This document shows, piece by piece, positions 9,471 through 15,734 of a DNA stretch of 18,234 bases. The notes beneath the pieces were generated by a model. The model ran no database searches and had not been told where the DNA came from. It saw only the letters and a program-made list of their open reading frames with translations. Made by a program: the position numbers and the translations under genes. Each line of letters opens with the position of its first letter. Position 1 is the stretch's first letter. Origin of the DNA: a virus; UHGV virus genome UHGV-0285855, one strand, 5' to 3'.

Positions 9471-10552
9471 TGCCTTATCAGCCTTTACCGCTGGCACAGT
9501 TAATCACGCAGACACAGCAGGATATCAGCCAGCGTCTGCCAGGTTCGCAGCCGGGTGTGAATGAAACCACCCTGAATGCCATTGCTTACGCTCAGGCAGG
9601 GTTATCTGCTCAGGAGCATGAGCATCTGGCCTGGATTGCGCGTCAGATCATCCCGACCGAAGCCGATGAAGCCGAACTGCTGAAACACTGTGCATTCTGG
9701 GGCGTCATGCGTAAGCCTGCCTCTCGGGGGGACGGGCCGGTTCAGCTGATGCTGACCACGGATGCGGGGATCACGGAAGGTGTGCTTCTCCAGCGCAGTG
9801 ATGGCGTGGTTTACCGCATCACCACCTCACTGACCGGTAAGGCCGGTACGCTGAATGTCAGTGTGGAAGCCGAAAGTGCCGGTCGTGCGGGAAATGCCCC
9901 AGCAGGGACAAAACTGACATTTATCACACCGCAGGCGGGGATCAACCAGACGGCCACGGTGACCGGAACGGGGATCACCGGTGGTGCGGATGTGGAAACC
10001 GTGCCGGAGCTGCTTTCCCGTCTGGTTTTCCGGGTGCAGAATCCGCCGTCCGGCGGCACGCAGTATGATTTCGAACGCTGGGCGCGTGAAGTGCCGGGCG
10101 TGACGCGGGCATGGTGCCGCCCGGAATGGCCGCAGGCGGGCAGCGTGGGGGTAACGTTCGTTCAGGATAATAACCCGGATATTTTCCCCGGTGACGGTGA
10201 TGTTCAGCGGGTGGCGGATTATATCCGCAGTCATGATGATCCGGCGACCGGCCAGCCTGTCGGACAGCCTCTGGGGCCGACAGTGACCGTGTTTAAACTG
10301 ACCAATAAGCCGGTGCCCTTCAGCATCAGGATCATCCCGAAAACACCGGAGAATCAGGCGGCCGTAAAACAGGCGCTGACCGACCTGTTATACAACGAAT
10401 CCCGGCCCGGCGGTCTGGTTCTGCCGTCGTCTTTCTGGCGTGCCGTGGCGGGGGTGAAAAATCTGGAGGATTTTGAAGTGCGCAGTCCGCTGACGTCAGT
10501 TCAGGCGGGAGACAGTGAGCTGCTGACGGTAGGAGAAATCACATGGCTGTAA
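9470..10552 (+). CDS. Baseplate J-like protein (Mu gp47-like)
   Basis: 360-aa ORF; TAATG stop/start overlap at 9468-9472; position between gp46 and gp48. Confidence 0.7.
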   Translation: MPYQPLPLAQLITQTQQDISQRLPGSQPGVNETTLNAIAYAQAGLSAQEHEHLAWIARQIIPTEADEAELLKHCAFWGVMRKPASRGDGPVQLMLTTDAGITEGVLLQRSDGVVYRITTSLTGKAGTLNVSVEAESAGRAGNAPAGTKLTFITPQAGINQTATVTGTGITGGADVETVPELLSRLVFRVQNPPSGGTQYDFERWAREVPGVTRAWCRPEWPQAGSVGVTFVQDNNPDIFPGDGDVQRVADYIRSHDDPATGQPVGQPLGPTVTVFKLTNKPVPFSIRIIPKTPENQAAVKQALTDLLYNESRPGGLVLPSSFWRAVAGVKNLEDFEVRSPLTSVQAGDSELLTVGEITWL

Positions 10553-11103
10553 CCCTGACCCCGCATCAGCGCGCCCTGTTGCAGTTACTGCCTGACGGGC
10601 TGGCATGGGACAAGCGTCCGTCATCCGTACTGGCATCGTTATGCCTGGGCCTCAGCCATTCGACAGCGCGTGTATCCTGGACGGGTAAACAGCTGCTTGC
10701 CGAGCGTTTCCCTGACACGTCTCGCCTGCTGCTGGAAGACTGGGAGCGTTATCTCGGCCTTCCTGAATGTGATATGGCCGGAGCCACCATAACGGAGCGA
10801 CAGCGTTATGCCGGAAATAAATACCGGATGAAGCCCTCGCTGAACCGTGAATTTTATATCCGGTTTGCGGCGGAGTTTGGGTATCAGATTGACATTCAGC
10901 CTTCACCGGATTCGCAGTGGGTCAGTATTGTCACGATTAACAGTGAAACCGACTACCGGAATATGAATGTGCTGGATGATATTCTCACGCCGCTGCGTAT
11001 TTATGAAGGCGGTGCGCTGGAATGTATTCTGAATCGTTATAAGCCTGCATGGCAGACGTTTATTTACGTGTATGCAAACAGCCACGAAGAGGAGAATATT
11101 TAA
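10543..11103 (+). CDS. Tail/baseplate protein Mu gp48-like (DUF2313-type)
   Basis: 186-aa ORF overlapping both neighbours; located immediately upstream of the tail fibre. Confidence 0.55.
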
Positions 11104-11984
11104 TGTTTCATGTTGATAATAATTCCGGCGTGGCGAATATGCCTGCGCTGGCACCGGCGCAGAGTAATACCACCACCTGGTTTACCGAAGGTGACGGACA
11201 AAAAGGTATCAGCTGGATTGGTCAGGACTGGCTGAATATTCTCCAGGCCGAACTGCTGAATATTCTGGCTGAAGCCAGTATTCAGCCGGATAAGGCGCAG
11301 TTAAACCAGCTTACGCAGTCCATTAAAGCCATTATCGCTGCGAATGCCTTTTCCCGGAAAAATAACCTGAAAGAAATTGCTGATGCCGGAACGAAAGCAC
11401 AACAGCTTGCCCGTGGTTATCTTGGTCTGGGGGCGCTTGCCACAAAAAACAGTCTTGGTCCCGGTGACGTTAATGCCCTGGCGAAGGATCAGAATCTGGC
11501 CGACCTGGAGAATAAGGGAACCGCCCGTAATAATCTGGATGTTTACAGCAAAAGCGAGGGTGATAACCGTTACCTGCGCAGGGAGCAGAACGGCGCAGAC
11601 ATTCCGGATAAAGGGGCTTTTATCGATAACGTCGGTTTACGGGAAACGGTAAACAAGGCCGCGAACGCACTGCCATCGAATGGAACGGCCGTTGCCGCGA
11701 ACAGGCTGGCAAATGCCCACACAATTAATGGGGTTCCCTTTGACGGGACCATGGATATCACTATCTCATCAGGAACAGTAACCGCTGTAAGGCTGGGGTC
11801 GGTGACAGCACATATGCCCGGAACATGGGAAAGCTGGGATCTTAATCTGGGGGGCGGTAATGTTATTACCGGAATTAAAGTACAGGATGTCGGTAAGAAT
11901 ACGGCAGATAACGTCGGCGGCGTGTATTACCGGCCGTTGCAGTATCTGTTAAATGGGGCATGGGTGACGGCAGCGAGTATATAA
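11103..11984 (+). CDS. Tail fibre protein: constant N-terminal part plus the currently fused variable C-terminus
   Basis: Start ATG at 11103 overlaps the gp48 stop (TAATG). The reading frame passes in frame through the left crossover site at ~11632 into the invertible segment. C-terminus ...[19 protein letters not shown] is paralogous to the alternative cassette end. Confidence 0.8.
11620..11645. promoter_or_regulatory. Left gix/hix-like 26-bp recombination site of the invertible segment
   Basis: TTATCGATAACG-TC-GGTTTACGGGAA. The inner half-site is identical to the reverse complement of the inner half of the right site; the outer half differs; the central dinucleotide TC is the complement of GA at the right site. 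Confidence 0.6.
11632..11737. repeat. Left copy of 106-bp perfect inverted repeat (IR-L)
   Basis: Base-by-base comparison: 11632-11737 equals the reverse complement of 12845-12950; imperfect extension to ~11749. Confidence 0.9.
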
Positions 11985-11992
11985 TGGCGTTC

Positions 11993-12012
11993 AGAAGGCC
12001 TTCCGGCCTTCT
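11993..12012. terminator. Hairpin between convergent tail-fibre and tfa stop codons (putative bidirectional terminator or stabilising structure)
   Basis: Perfect 8-bp stem AGAAGGCC/GGCCTTCT with 4-nt loop TTCC; weak U-tracts on both sides. Confidence 0.4.
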
Positions 12013-12015
12013 TCA

Positions 12016-12537
12016 TTACTGTGGCTGTTCAGGCCATTTAATGGCGTTAAATTCAGCTTCAGTTTTAATGGCGGGTAATACCATTTTTTTCACCTGACTG
12101 ATGTATGCCATCCATCTGGTAAGTGCGGCTCTGTCTTCATCACTGATGGTGCCCAGTTGTAGTTCTGTTCTCCAGTCATTAATTTTTTCATATGCCTGAT
12201 TAAGATATGACTGGCGCAGTTCTTCCGCTTTTTTGTCGTAGTTGACCGGAAGCGGTGAGATGACGCCATTATCAAACTTCCAGTTACCTGAAATATCCGT
12301 GCCTTCAGGGAGTTCATCGGCCTCAACCACAGAGAATCCCACAGGATACAGCGCCGAGGCGTCCTGTGATATTGAGCAGATAATGCCGCTGTCAGGTGTT
12401 ATGCAAAGTTTATATTTTTTGGTGAATAATGGCAGGGACTCGTAGAAATCCTTACCATCTTCACTCTGAAAATACTGAACATTATTACCATATGGCATAT
12501 TTTCAGGATAATAACGGGTTATATTTTTTAGTTCCAT
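12016..12537 (-). CDS. Tail fibre assembly chaperone (Tfa / Mu U-like)
   Basis: 173-aa ORF; C-terminus ...SDEDRAALTRWMAYISQVKKMV...IKWPEQPQ fits the conserved Tfa C-terminal signature; AGGAGG upstream on the minus strand. Confidence 0.8.
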   Translation of the reverse strand: MELKNITRYYPENMPYGNNVQYFQSEDGKDFYESLPLFTKKYKLCITPDSGIICSISQDASALYPVGFSVVEADELPEGTDISGNWKFDNGVISPLPVNYDKKAEELRQSYLNQAYEKINDWRTELQLGTISDEDRAALTRWMAYISQVKKMVLPAIKTEAEFNAIKWPEQPQ

Positions 12538-12588
12538 AAAATCCTCCTGGAAATAAATCTGTTTTAAAATATATTATTTACCGCCTAT

Positions 12589-12949
12589 TTATAACTGAGA
12601 TACCGTAATCCATGAGCCATTTATGTATATCTGTAGTGGGCGAAAATAAGCAAAATCGCCACTGTTATCCACTTCACCCGCTATAGATAACGCCGTCATT
12701 ACACATCCTCCTATACCGATTTTTCCCCCGAATGGCATTAATACAGACATTTCTGAACCCAGTCTCACATTCTGCACATAACGGGCATCACCATCCAGCA
12801 GAGTCATACCAGAAGTGATGTTTATATCCTGCGTTCCGTCAAAAGGAACCCCATTAATTGTGTGGGCATTTGCCAGCCTGTTCGCGGCAACGGCCGTTCC
12901 ATTCGATGGCAGTGCGTTCGCGGCCTTGTTTACCGTTTCCCGTAAACCG
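12589..12949 (-). CDS. Alternative tail-fibre variable C-terminal cassette (promoterless; expressed only after inversion)
   Basis: The minus-strand frame reads ...[31 protein letters not shown]...YFRPLQIYINGSWITVSQL; the first ~35 codons are encoded by IR-R and are identical to the current fibre. Confidence 0.7.
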
Positions 12950-12950
12950 A
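12845..12950. repeat. Right copy of 106-bp perfect inverted repeat (IR-R)
   Basis: Reverse complement of 11632-11737. Confidence 0.9.
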
Positions 12951-12962
12951 GGTTTTCAGGAA
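12937..12962. promoter_or_regulatory. Right gix/hix-like 26-bp recombination site
   Basis: TTCCCGTAAACC-GA-GGTTTTCAGGAA, a near-palindromic 26-mer closely resembling the gix consensus, at the outer edge of IR-R. Confidence 0.65.
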
Positions 12963-13027
12963 AGCCCCTGTTCTCCCCGTTTTATTCATCATGCGACAAT
13001 TCCGGCTTTTTATAATAAGGAGATCGT

Positions 13028-13600
13028 ATGCTGATTGGGTATATCAGGGTGTCAACAAATGACCAGAATACGGCGCTACAGAGAAATGCGCTGGAATGTG
13101 CAGGATGTGAGCTGTTTTTCGAAGACAGAATAAGCGGTAAGACAAGGGAACGTCCCGGCCTTAAACGCGCATTAAAGCGACTCCGGCCAGGGGATACCCT
13201 GCTGGTCTGGAAACTGGATCGTCTTGGACGTAGTATGCAGCACCTTGTCCTTTTAACAGAAGAACTCCGGCAGCGCGGCGTTAACTTCCGCAGCATTACG
13301 GACAATATTGATACATCCACTCCCATGGGACGTTTCTTTTTCCATATAATGGGCGCACTGGCGGAAATGGAGCGGGAACTCATTATTGAACGTACACGCG
13401 CGGGTCTTGCTGCTGCCCGTGCTCAGGGGCGTCATGGCGGCAGACCTCAGAAACTGACAGGGAAAGAGCGGGAGCAAATCGCCCGTTTGCTGGCTAATGG
13501 CGAGTCCCGTAAACAAATCGCACTGATATTTGATATTGGCCTGTCCACCCTTTATCGTTATTTTCCTGCCTCACCGGCTCCGTCACCAAAAGTACCGTGA
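13028..13600 (+). CDS. gin: Serine-recombinase DNA invertase (Gin/Hin/Cin/Pin family)
   Basis: 190 aa; N-terminus MLIGYIRVSTNDQNTALQRNAL... with catalytic Ser in RVST; resolvase-type catalytic domain plus C-terminal helix-turn-helix (LSTLYRYF); AAGGAG 5-10 nt upstream of the ATG; adjacent to the invertible segment. Confidence 0.9.
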   Translation: MLIGYIRVSTNDQNTALQRNALECAGCELFFEDRISGKTRERPGLKRALKRLRPGDTLLVWKLDRLGRSMQHLVLLTEELRQRGVNFRSITDNIDTSTPMGRFFFHIMGALAEMERELIIERTRAGLAAARAQGRHGGRPQKLTGKEREQIARLLANGESRKQIALIFDIGLSTLYRYFPASPAPSPKVP

Positions 13601-13685
13601 CGCTTTTTTGAATTTCCGCAAAACACATATTTTTCAGCGGTCGCTATTCTGACTCTGTTTAATTCAGAAACAGGCAGAAAAGACG

Positions 13686-15734
13686 ATGTCAGACTCCCAG
13701 TGGAAAATGCTCTCCGCCATGCCCGGAGAGTTTTCAGTCAAGGTTGCCGGTGGCACGGTGGCATTTATTGAAAGTCCTTTCCGGCCTTCGGGTAATAAAG
13801 GCGGGATCACCTTCGCAGACTGCGTGATCCGCTTCAGCACGAAAGAGCCATTATGGATAATGCCGGTATCAGGTAATCCCAGCGCAGAAATCACCAGTTC
13901 AGGCGTGACCGGTATCATTCCGATCACATCTGACGTGGCCGGAACACTCACACCTTCTGACTGGAGTGCACCGGATAACGCCGGATCTTCTGGTGGCACA
14001 AATGGCAGCAGTACAGAGCCGGAGTATTACTATGTGCTTCCACTGACCGGGCAGTCCAACGGGATGGCCTACGGTGAAGGGCTTCCGTTGCCGGATTCAT
14101 TTGACCGTCCTGAACCGCGCATTAAGCAACTGGCCCGACGCAGTACGGTAACGCCGGGTGGTGAAGCCTGTTCTTATAACGATGTCATTCCCGCAGACCA
14201 CTGTCTGCATGATGTGCAGGACATGAGCGGGATGAACCACCCGAAAGCTGATCTGGCAAAAGGCCAGTACGGGACTGTCGGTCAGGGGCTGCATATTGCC
14301 AAAAAACTGCTGCCTTATATTCCGCAGAATGCCGGGATACTTCTGGTTCCCTGCTGTCGTGGTGGTTCGGCATTCACCGCCGGGGCTGATGGCTCATTCA
14401 GTGAGGCCAGCGGTGCTTCCGCTGATTCTTCACGCTGGGGAGTTGGTAAACCCCTGTATCAGGACCTGCTCAGTCGCACCAGAGCGGCGCTGGCGAAGAA
14501 CCCGAAAAATAAACTTCTGGCTGTGGTATGGATGCAGGGAGAGGCAGACCTTGCTTCAGGAAGTCAGCAGCATAATGGTTTATTTACAGCCATGGTTCAG
14601 CAGTTCAGAACCGACCTGTCTCCGCTTGCTGCGCAGTGCGTGAGTGGAAATGCTGCCACGGTGCCGTGGATTTGTGGTGATACCACGTATTACTGGAAAA
14701 ACACGTATGCCACGCAGTATGAAACAGTCTATGGCGCATATAATAATCTGACCGCACAGAATATTTTCTTTGTGCCGTTCCTGACGGATGAGAATGGACA
14801 GAACACGCCAACGAATGCTCCGGCGGAAGACCCGGATATTGTGGCTGTCGGGTATTACGGTGCGGCATCCCGTACCCAGGGCAGTTTTGTCTCCACACAG
14901 CGTGACAGCCATTTCAGCTCATGGGCACGCAGGGGCATCATTTCTGACCGTCTGGCCTCAGCCATTCTGCTCCATGCGGGACGCACGGCTGAAGTTATGG
15001 GCGGACAGGCCGTGCCGCCGGATGAAAAACCATCCCCTGACACGCCATCAACGCCGTCAACGGACGGGAAATCAATGACGACGCTGTTTTCTTACCGCGC
15101 ATCGGAGTCAGGCGGAGCACTGACGCCACAGGGCTGGGGGGCGGAAGGCGGTAGTGCTGCTGTTGTGGATGATGTCGGTGCCAGCGGGGGCAAGGCGCTG
15201 AAGCTGACAAAACAGACCGGAAAGTCATGGTTTATGCAGCATGATGCCGGTAATGGTGCCGACCTGCTGGAAAAAGGTGGCCTTGTCAGCTGTCGTTTTA
15301 AACTTGATGGCGCGCTTACGGCTAATCAGTACGCACTGGCGCTGTACTGGCCGGTTTCTTCGCTGCCTCAGGGCGTCACACTGGAAGGTAATGCCGGCCA
15401 TAACCTGCTGGCATCGTTTTACGTTCAGAGCGATGCCACAGACCTTAACGTGATGTACCACAAGGGTAATCCAGACCAGAACACGAAGCTGGGTTCATTC
15501 GGTGCATTTAATAACGAATGGCATACGCTGGCATTCCGTTTTGCCGGTAACAACAGTATTGAGGTAACGCCGGTGATTGATGGACAGGACGGGACACCGT
15601 TCATGCTGTCGCAGTCTCCGGTAGGGACACTGGCGGCAGACAAGTTACGCCTGACCGATATCACCAGTAATGCAACGTATCCGGTACTGATTGACAGCAT
15701 TTTGGTGGAAGTGAATAACCCGTCAGCAGGATAA
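13686..15734 (+). CDS. Multidomain carbohydrate O-acetylesterase, SGNH/SASA (sialate-O-acetylesterase-like, NanS-like) family
   Basis: 682 aa; GQSN block at aa 122-125 (nt 14049-14060) in place of GDSL; WMQGEAD block; DSH near the C-terminal part of the catalytic domain; extra N-terminal (~115 aa) and C-terminal (~230 aa) domains. Confidence 0.65.
   Translation: MSDSQWKMLSAMPGEFSVKVAGGTVAFIESPFRPSGNKGGITFADCVIRFSTKEPLWIMPVSGNPSAEITSSGVTGIIPITSDVAGTLTPSDWSAPDNAGSSGGTNGSSTEPEYYYVLPLTGQSNGMAYGEGLPLPDSFDRPEPRIKQLARRSTVTPGGEACSYNDVIPADHCLHDVQDMSGMNHPKADLAKGQYGTVGQGLHIAKKLLPYIPQNAGILLVPCCRGGSAFTAGADGSFSEASGASADSSRWGVGKPLYQDLLSRTRAALAKNPKNKLLAVVWMQGEADLASGSQQHNGLFTAMVQQFRTDLSPLAAQCVSGNAATVPWICGDTTYYWKNTYATQYETVYGAYNNLTAQNIFFVPFLTDENGQNTPTNAPAEDPDIVAVGYYGAASRTQGSFVSTQRDSHFSSWARRGIISDRLASAILLHAGRTAEVMGGQAVPPDEKPSPDTPSTPSTDGKSMTTLFSYRASESGGALTPQGWGAEGGSAAVVDDVGASGGKALKLTKQTGKSWFMQHDAGNGADLLEKGGLVSCRFKLDGALTANQYALALYWPVSSLPQGVTLEGNAGHNLLASFYVQSDATDLNVMYHKGNPDQNTKLGSFGAFNNEWHTLAFRFAGNNSIEVTPVIDGQDGTPFMLSQSPVGTLAADKLRLTDITSNATYPVLIDSILVEVNNPSAG

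Follow-up and report, generated by a model that had tools for sequence, protein, structure and literature searches.

The stretch of viral DNA analysed here (UHGV virus genome UHGV-0285855, 18,234 nucleotides (nt); the whole stretch is called the window below) holds the tail-to-right-end portion of a Mu-like prophage, in which a tail-fibre gene with two alternative tips is accompanied by a single gene, tfa, for a tail-fibre assembly chaperone (Tfa). The region is a host-range switch of the G-segment type belonging to a Mu-like transposable prophage, in which a 1.3-kb segment is flipped by an invertase of the Gin/Pin family and the fibre, with its constant N-terminus, thereby ends in a class I tip (the present state) or in a class II tip. 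The segment works like the G segment of Mu and shares its recombination features, while one Tfa per tip is lacking. To our knowledge, every textbook invertible fibre system has one Tfa per tip, and no discussion of an invertible segment with a single Tfa was found in full-text literature searches. As to how one chaperone gene may serve two tips, we tentatively favour, at somewhat less than an even chance, a generalist Tfa that serves both tips in trans and whose gene is transcribed whichever way the segment lies; both the trans action on the distal tip and the orientation-independent expression are what we infer.

Identity and copy number of the chaperone gene

The gene tfa (12016-12537, minus strand, 173 amino acids (aa)) is convergent with the fibre gene, and its product matches the Pfam family Caudo_TAP (PF02413) with E=1.8e-18 and 67.4 bits, against a cut-off of 22.1, as well as the solved structure of Mu U (5YVQ_B, E=6e-15), to which its residues 18-151 are aligned. 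A Tfa profile was built from seven diverse Tfas, namely the window's own, the O157-type one, U and U' of Mu, two of a P1 variant and one of a P2 variant, and was run, together with tblastn searches using several Tfas, against all stop-to-stop segments of the window and of the complete 38-kb prophage of Escherichia coli CI5. The profile gave a single match in the window (E=2e-72; runner-up E=2.1) and a single match in the CI5 prophage (runner-up E=0.53), two matches each being returned by Mu and the P1 variant as positive controls. A further tfa gene, which the first-pass annotation had named as refuting evidence, was found by neither the profile nor tblastn, be it in the window or in the CI5 prophage, the annotation of which also contains one tail fiber assembly protein. 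The first-pass annotation of the window had set its only Tfa gene against the one Tfa per variable cassette of Mu, P1 and e14, and both halves of that comparison have held, since two tfa genes were confirmed in each of the three known systems. In fact, the gene is directly 3' of, and co-directional with, tip B (51-nt gap), which is not the case for tip A, the one expressed here; the arrangement of Mu, P1 and e14, with a tfa behind each tip, is not found in this segment. Among named phages the nearest Tfa is that of Rac-SA53 (49% identity), a phage without invertase and with two ordinary fibre-tfa pairs.

Structure of the segment and evidence for inversion

The fibre gene in the version expressed in the present orientation (11103-11984, plus strand; an open reading frame (ORF) of 293 aa in translation) has three parts, namely a constant one reaching to the crossover (~11633), the stretch shared by both versions and the class I tip 'A' (11751-11984, plus strand, 77 aa), which is the tfa-distal one. 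Its first ~190-198 residues match Mu fibre S (5YVQ_A, E=5e-44; also 8JU3_A), and tip A matches the S' tip and the short tail fibre 9CUY. Between the convergent stops of the fibre gene and tfa, 31 nt apart, there is a hairpin with an 8-bp G+C-rich stem (AGAAGGCC-TTCC-GGCCTTCT, 11993-12012). On its other side tfa is preceded by an A+T-rich spacer of 51 nt (12538-12588, minus strand), running from the stop of tip B to the start of tfa and provided with its own AGGAGG ribosome-binding site. The alternative cassette, Sv' (12589-12948, minus strand), is a start-less frame in translation, silent in the present orientation, which comprises the shared stretch and an 80-aa class II tip, 'B' (12589-12831); the tip adjoins tfa on its 5' side on the minus strand, and the frame stops at 12589. 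Tip B matches the Mu S tip (5YVQ_A 435-502) and is 50% identical to the tips of P2 H and P1 S. The layout described in the first-pass annotation, with the fibre ORF followed by a hairpin and by a convergent tfa downstream of the alternative cassette, was thus recovered at the same positions.

The repeat search placed the arms of an inverted repeat at 11606-11773 and 12809-12976 (168 nt, 88% complementary), and according to the translations this repeat encodes 38 residues (LRETVNK...PFDGT) common to both fibre versions. Inside it lie two mutually inverted 26-bp crossover sites of the gix/cix/pix type. The left gix-like site, TTATCGATAACGTCGGTTTACGGGAA (11620-11645, centre TC at 11632-11633), has a reverse complement, TTCCCGTAAACCGACGTTATCGATAA, which aligns with the right one, TTCCCGTAAACCGAGGTTTTCAGGAA (12937-12962, centre GA at 12949-12950), with the same central GA, both reading TTCCCGTAAACC-GA-... 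when aligned. Each arm also contains an 18-nt direct repeat with 36-nt spacing (GCCGCGAAC...; 11658-11675 and 11694-11711, mirrored at 12871-12888 and 12907-12924), which mirrors the repeated AAN..L peptide motif of the shared fibre stretch.

Just outside the segment, a serine DNA invertase of the Gin/Pin/Cin/Hin family is encoded (13028-13600, plus strand, 190 aa; Resolvase, E=2e-51, and HTH_7), 74% identical to Mu Gin. The 5' 230 nt of its gene align with that part of gin in which the recombinational enhancer lies, the two blocks GTGCAGGATGTGA.C and AAACGCGC.TTAAAGCG being well conserved; Fis sites cannot be called from sequence alone. When positions 11634-12948 were flipped in silico, an intact 296-aa fibre was obtained, followed by a co-directional tfa, and both states occur in nature. 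In fact, a Tfa identical to that of the window was found in both of them on human-gut metagenome contigs and in one NCBI assembly: convergent beside the 293-aa fibre at three loci (L015, L017, L022), and co-directional beside the 296-aa fibre at four (L016, L019, L020, L021), the 296-aa gene being called as such in L016, L019 and L020. Identical tfa alleles in opposite states are also given by the pairs L007/L061 and L057/L062. Among complete E. coli genomes, JKHS016 shows the present state and CI5 the flipped one, and many short metagenome contigs break off at the inverted repeats. In the 5,426 complete E. coli genomes, gp48 and fibre are followed by a convergent tfa in 208 and by a co-directional tfa in 33, a count which is inflated by clonal lineages such as O157 and takes in non-invertible derivatives, so that the skew should not be over-read. 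The features of Gin, Hin, Cin and Pin segments are therefore present: a neighbouring Gin-family invertase, inverted sites with the same central dinucleotide, two intact frames and two natural orientations.

Distribution of the layout

The order fibre gene, convergent single tfa, Sv', invertase gene and DUF6645 gene is conserved. Relatives in E. coli, 78-95% identical in nucleotides, have it, as do more than 30 loci of IMG/VR, O157:H7 and the Mu-like insert of two Shiga toxin (Stx) phage records (LC727881, LC727895), and, with longer fibres, a Citrobacter braakii prophage and two further IMG/VR loci. About 240 of the 5,426 complete E. coli genomes contain the one-tfa system, prophages of the O157 Sp18 type among them. 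A fibre search of genome contigs gave 4 loci only, IMG/VR and the E. coli genomes being far richer. The CI5 relative is 97% identical to the window and represents a complete 38-kb transposable prophage of the Mu type, inserted in yfcU, whose gene content comprises repressor, MuA, MuB, Gam, an activator of the Mor/C family, and lysis, head and tail genes. As judged from these sequence comparisons, the one-tfa layout is a clade trait of Mu-like prophages and not the outcome of local decay.

At two IMG/VR loci of the wider group (L072 and L074), with fibre N-termini 61-74% identical, there is neither a match to the Tfa profile nor an invertase between the fibre and DUF6645 genes. Because of the missing profile match, these loci point to a third fibre solution in the wider group, which does without any Tfa.

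Comparison with known invertible fibre systems

The closest parallel is drawn with the G segment of Mu (S/U, S'/U' and Gin; likewise D108, SfMu and Mu-like Yersinia phages). In both cases a tail/baseplate module of the Mu type lies upstream, the fibre gene is divided by the crossover at the corresponding point, GA forms the centre of the 26-bp gix-like sites, the invertase gene is found just beyond the right end and a short hairpin-bearing gap separates the convergent inner genes. Moreover, the fibre N-terminus of the window is 44-46% identical to that of Mu S, both tips have their homologue in the S/S' tip domain, and Tfa has its own in U. The differences concern gene content and size. Whereas Mu has two tfa genes, the window has one, the equivalent of U being missing and 31 nt standing in its place. 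The variable parts are no longer than 77-87 aa, and whole fibres measure 293 or 296 aa, compared with 504 aa in Mu, whose long shaft is absent here; the segment measures 1.3 kb rather than 3 kb, and the spacer between Sv' and tfa is 51-121 nt long in the clade but 2 nt in Mu.

The C segment of P1 and P7 and the P segment of e14 (Cin and Pin) share with the window the recombinase family and the logic of alternative fibre C-termini, and tip B has 50% identity with the tips of P1 and P7. They differ in having two tfa genes each, U and U' in P1, tfaP and tfaE in e14. The same architecture as in the window is found in Sp18 of E. coli O157:H7 Sakai and its relatives, with 77% identity in the fibre and about 61-62% in Tfa, the latter belonging to another allele group and the tips to types C and E. 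As regards the Tfa family itself (Caudo_TAP; Mu U, 5YVQ, North et al. 2019 as summarised in PMC9608196), the window's protein is likewise a two-domain protein of ~175 aa, but conservation in this clade is higher in the N-domain, and tfa does not stand behind one of the two tips to be served.

Tip classes and their pairing with Tfa

Every cassette was translated and its tip classified, the positional rule being taken from all loci with both cassettes. The tfa-distal position is occupied without exception by class I, either type A (77 aa, as in the window) or type C (87 aa), both with ...ADN.GGVYYRP.Q..., and the tfa-proximal position, again without exception, by class II, that is, types B (as in the window), B2, D (Mu S-like) and E. 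Within each position the types are freely swapped. All of them have in common the C-terminal motif [YF][YF]R[PQ]xQxx[ILV]x[GN]xWx[TS]x[AS][SQ]x, and tips A and B of the window are both homologous to the Mu S/S' tip domain.

The pairing of Tfa alleles with tips is loose, Tfa not tracking the tip types. Alleles 86-94% identical to that of the window lie beside a proximal tip of type B, B2 or D (35-54% identity among the three) and across from a distal tip of type A or C, and the O157-type Tfa (about 61-62% identical to the window's) adjoins E or D. According to PMC9608196, residues 31-100 of Tfa correspond by homology to the fibre-binding domain of Mu U, and in the family at large the N-domain is variable and fibre-specific and the C-domain conserved. 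In the present clade, the identity of residues 31-100 is 91-94% inside the main group and 69-70% from one group to the other, while that of the C-domain (residues 101-173) is 49% between groups (window compared with L005 and L044). This presumed fibre-binding domain thus shows the reverse of the family pattern, as might be expected of a generalist binder of a conserved tip feature.

Two cases from other phages bear on the same question. The Tfa of the P2 variant is 85% identical to Mu U, and its tip is 52% identical to that of Mu S and belongs to a different class; nearly the same Tfa thus serves both tip classes in different phages, and by analogy no better precedent is available for a chaperone shared between the two tips of the window. 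Furthermore, homologues of tip A exist in the P1 variant MH422554 (53% identity) and the P2 variant OU784549 (45%), and in each of them the fibre stop is followed at 0-2 nt by the start of a Tfa gene; the distal tip class therefore normally goes with a Tfa. The suggestion, made when the window was first read, that two paralogous C-termini could share a chaperone has been strengthened by the homology of both to the Mu S/S' tips, the common motif, the association of one Tfa group with several tips and the case of Mu U and the P2 variant.

Selection on the tips and non-invertible derivatives

The distal tips are intact at all loci. The median pairwise ratio of nonsynonymous to synonymous substitution rates (dN/dS) was 0.12 for type A (9 alleles) and 0.09 for type C (8 alleles), and ranged from 0.10 to 0.28 among the proximal types. 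Purifying selection acts as strongly on the distal tips as on the proximal ones.

Deletion derivatives which have lost Sv' and almost all of the invertase gene were found in E. coli M18 (L002), M3 and M1 and at seven IMG/VR loci (L031, L033, L035-L038, L042). One edge of the deletion is close to the 3' terminus of Sv' and the other close to that of the invertase gene, with a single common junction (L002 3039-3342). The derivatives are locked in the tfa-convergent state with an A or C tip, and tfa is full-length in them, with pairwise dN/dS of 0.10-0.23 among them at a synonymous divergence (dS) of up to 0.43. These observations argue that tfa matters even where co-transcription with the fibre gene is impossible.

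Possible expression of tfa

In Mu, P1 and P2, the start of tfa lies 0-6 nt from the fibre stop. The spacers of relatives measure 79 and 121 nt and are not homologous to the 51 nt of the window, and a spacer of 51-121 nt with its own Shine-Dalgarno sequence fits tfa as an independent unit. The 121-nt spacer, present in L004 (3040-3160), L006 and L007, contains the decayed 3' end of an older tip (...LINGSWRTAGSA* in L007), the D tips of these loci being intact, which suggests that new tips were inserted upstream of old ones with tfa left undisturbed. Folded in a 56-nt context, the hairpin between the convergent genes reached -17.4 kcal/mol on the fibre strand and -15.7 kcal/mol on the tfa strand; the homologous hairpin of L002 was flagged as terminator-like on the fibre strand, that of the window was not.

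A late-promoter box of this prophage type, TTCTGAnnTnCCGCAAA-N23-TAnnCT, was recognised upstream of lys and protease I in CI5. The matrix for this box was derived from these upstream regions with the annotated late promoters of Mu as a guide, and comprises three sites only. At the junction of the deletion derivatives, two hexamer pairs directed toward tfa (TGGACA-N17-CATATT and ACGATA-N17-TATAAT) looked suggestive; they are at chance level and do not apply to the window, and were discarded.

Alternative explanations for the single chaperone gene

In the reading that we tentatively favour, a generalist Tfa would recognise the C-terminal motif that all tips of the clade have in common and in this way assist, in trans, either tip when it is expressed; of the fibre, inversion would then exchange no more than the last 77-87 residues. 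Tfa would be made in both orientations because tfa would form its own transcription unit, with its own spacer, ribosome-binding site and putative promoter, instead of being attached by translational coupling to the end of the fibre operon. Several results weigh against this. Tips A and B are only 38% identical over the last 70-75 residues, and so more diverged than in the precedent of Mu S and the P2 variant. A consensus scan from tfa to the invertase gene detected no sigma-70 promoter on the minus strand. A weight-matrix scan of the 200 nt upstream of tfa, covering the three spacer types, returned weak -10 elements (TATTTT, TATCAT, AAATAT) 20-39 nt before the ATG, which are no better than chance, being equalled by composition-matched shuffles in 50-218 of 300 trials; the best score in the window was reached by 218 of the 300 shuffles, and the weak candidate TTATAA-N17-TATTTT in its spacer is not above chance. 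The late-promoter box is likewise absent from the tfa strand in the matrix scan, with a best score of 4 compared with 48-55 at true sites. A leftward promoter for tfa had been listed as an option in the first-pass annotation; with no sigma-70 match above chance and no late box upstream, it is retained in the favoured reading as putative. Moreover, the tfa tree is not cleanly monophyletic for the locked derivatives and the differences are partly clustered, which weakens the argument from selection, since part of their divergence may have been imported from invertible relatives; on this account, the derivatives were abandoned as a clean test of selection after the deletion and serve as supporting evidence only.

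The main rival, which we regard as somewhat unlikely, holds that Tfa serves the proximal class II tip only and is made only after inversion, within the fibre operon, the distal class I tip trimerising unaided or with a heterologous Tfa from another prophage. The position of tfa speaks for it, co-directional with and directly 3' of the class II tip alone, as do the negative promoter searches in the present orientation and the strict rule of class I distal and class II proximal, which is what a split between tips that need Tfa and tips that do not would give. Relatives also have a T-rich run after the hairpin on the fibre strand, terminator-like in L002, as at the end of an operon. A heterologous supply would be helped by the several related fibre/tfa regions that E. 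coli genomes often hold (median 2 places, up to 8), and cross-complementation is known between T4 gp38 and lambda Tfa. An extension of this rival, which we hold to be unlikely, is that inversion toggles both the tip and whether the fibre of the virion has Tfa at all, the class II fibre being made with Tfa, and possibly capped by it as in Mu, and the class I fibre trimerising without a phage chaperone. That this fibre may fold without a dedicated chaperone had been one of the options left by the first-pass annotation; it is kept as part of this rival, but each homologous class I tip, in the P1 as in the P2 variant, is directly followed by a Tfa gene of its own. Furthermore, non-invertible derivatives with a class I tip alone keep an intact tfa under selection, and the Tfa N-domain does not co-vary with the type of the proximal tip, as that of a dedicated partner would.

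The same derivatives stand in the way of a further possibility, very improbable in our estimation, in which a few prophage copies flipped within the cell would supply Tfa during lytic replicative transposition and so chaperone the majority fibre, this being impossible where the segment cannot invert and tfa is nevertheless kept. The invertase gene is intact, the CI5 relative is a complete transposable prophage with MuA, MuB and a Mor/C-family activator, from which a high late copy number is expected, and the many metagenome contigs broken at the inverted repeats would fit mixed orientations in one sample. On the other hand, Gin-type inversion is slow compared with one lytic cycle, as known for Mu, and flipped copies would also make the other fibre, leading to mixed particles. 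Catalytic amounts may not suffice either, since Mu Tfa remains on the fibre of the finished virion (summarised in PMC9608196). The least credence of all is given to the present orientation being an off or defective state, where the fibre misfolds without co-transcribed Tfa and fibreless particles are formed, whether as phase-variable on/off control or in a decaying element. In its favour, tfa is antisense to the late operon, the promoter searches were negative and U is needed for fibres in Mu. Against it stand the distal tips, intact, of two exchanged types and under purifying selection equal to that on the proximal ones (dN/dS medians of 0.09-0.12), the greater frequency of the present orientation (208 compared with 33 complete E. 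coli genomes, with the clonal inflation noted above) and its fixation in the deletion derivatives, so that the fibre-defective particles envisaged in the first-pass annotation are disfavoured. Moreover, Sp18, the member of the group in O157, has been judged intact, and its DNA is packaged (PMC2669165).

Implications

Tfa is thought to be matched to its fibre through the variable N-terminal domain. In this context, a system that is widespread in nature and has two tips for a single Tfa offers a handle on the specificity of the chaperone, one protein being set before tips 38% identical, and also on whether every tip of this fold needs a Tfa. It is of relevance to the engineering of phage and tailocin host range, where the co-transfer of a cognate chaperone with swapped tips is a practical obstacle. 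If inversion did toggle the presence of Tfa, dependence on the chaperone would be specific to a lineage rather than a property of the tip fold, and the two versions would be a natural matched pair of fibres for working out the role of Tfa. The effect on general understanding is modest, since the switch and the protein families are well known.

Neighbouring genes

Upstream of the fibre gene, the window has the sheath, tube and tape-measure genes and the homologues of Mu gp43-gp48 on the plus strand, and the baseplate wedge gene of the Mu gp48/YmfQ family (10543-11103, plus strand; Pfam Phage_Mu_Gp48, E=5e-22) is directly 5' of it. On the right side, a copy of the late-promoter box is found at 13603-13654 on the plus strand (CTTTTTTGAATTTCCGCAAAAC...N...TATTCT), with the same spacing as at lys and protease I, just after the terminator hairpin of the invertase gene and before the gene at 13686-15734, where Mu has Pmom. 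This gene (plus strand) encodes 682 aa with a sialate-O-acetylesterase-like SASA domain and a C-terminal DUF6645, and because of the box upstream at that spacing it looks like a C-activated late gene. Its position is kept in all relatives (50-95% identical), including those without invertase, and the product is possibly a virion-associated or moron esterase. At the right end, a small Com-like ORF (16801-16989, plus strand) overlaps the start of a C5 cytosine DNA methyltransferase gene (16955-18007, plus strand; CI5 annotation and Pfam). By analogy with Mu, a translational-activator arrangement of the com-mom kind seems to have been kept at the com-mom position with a different DNA-modification enzyme.

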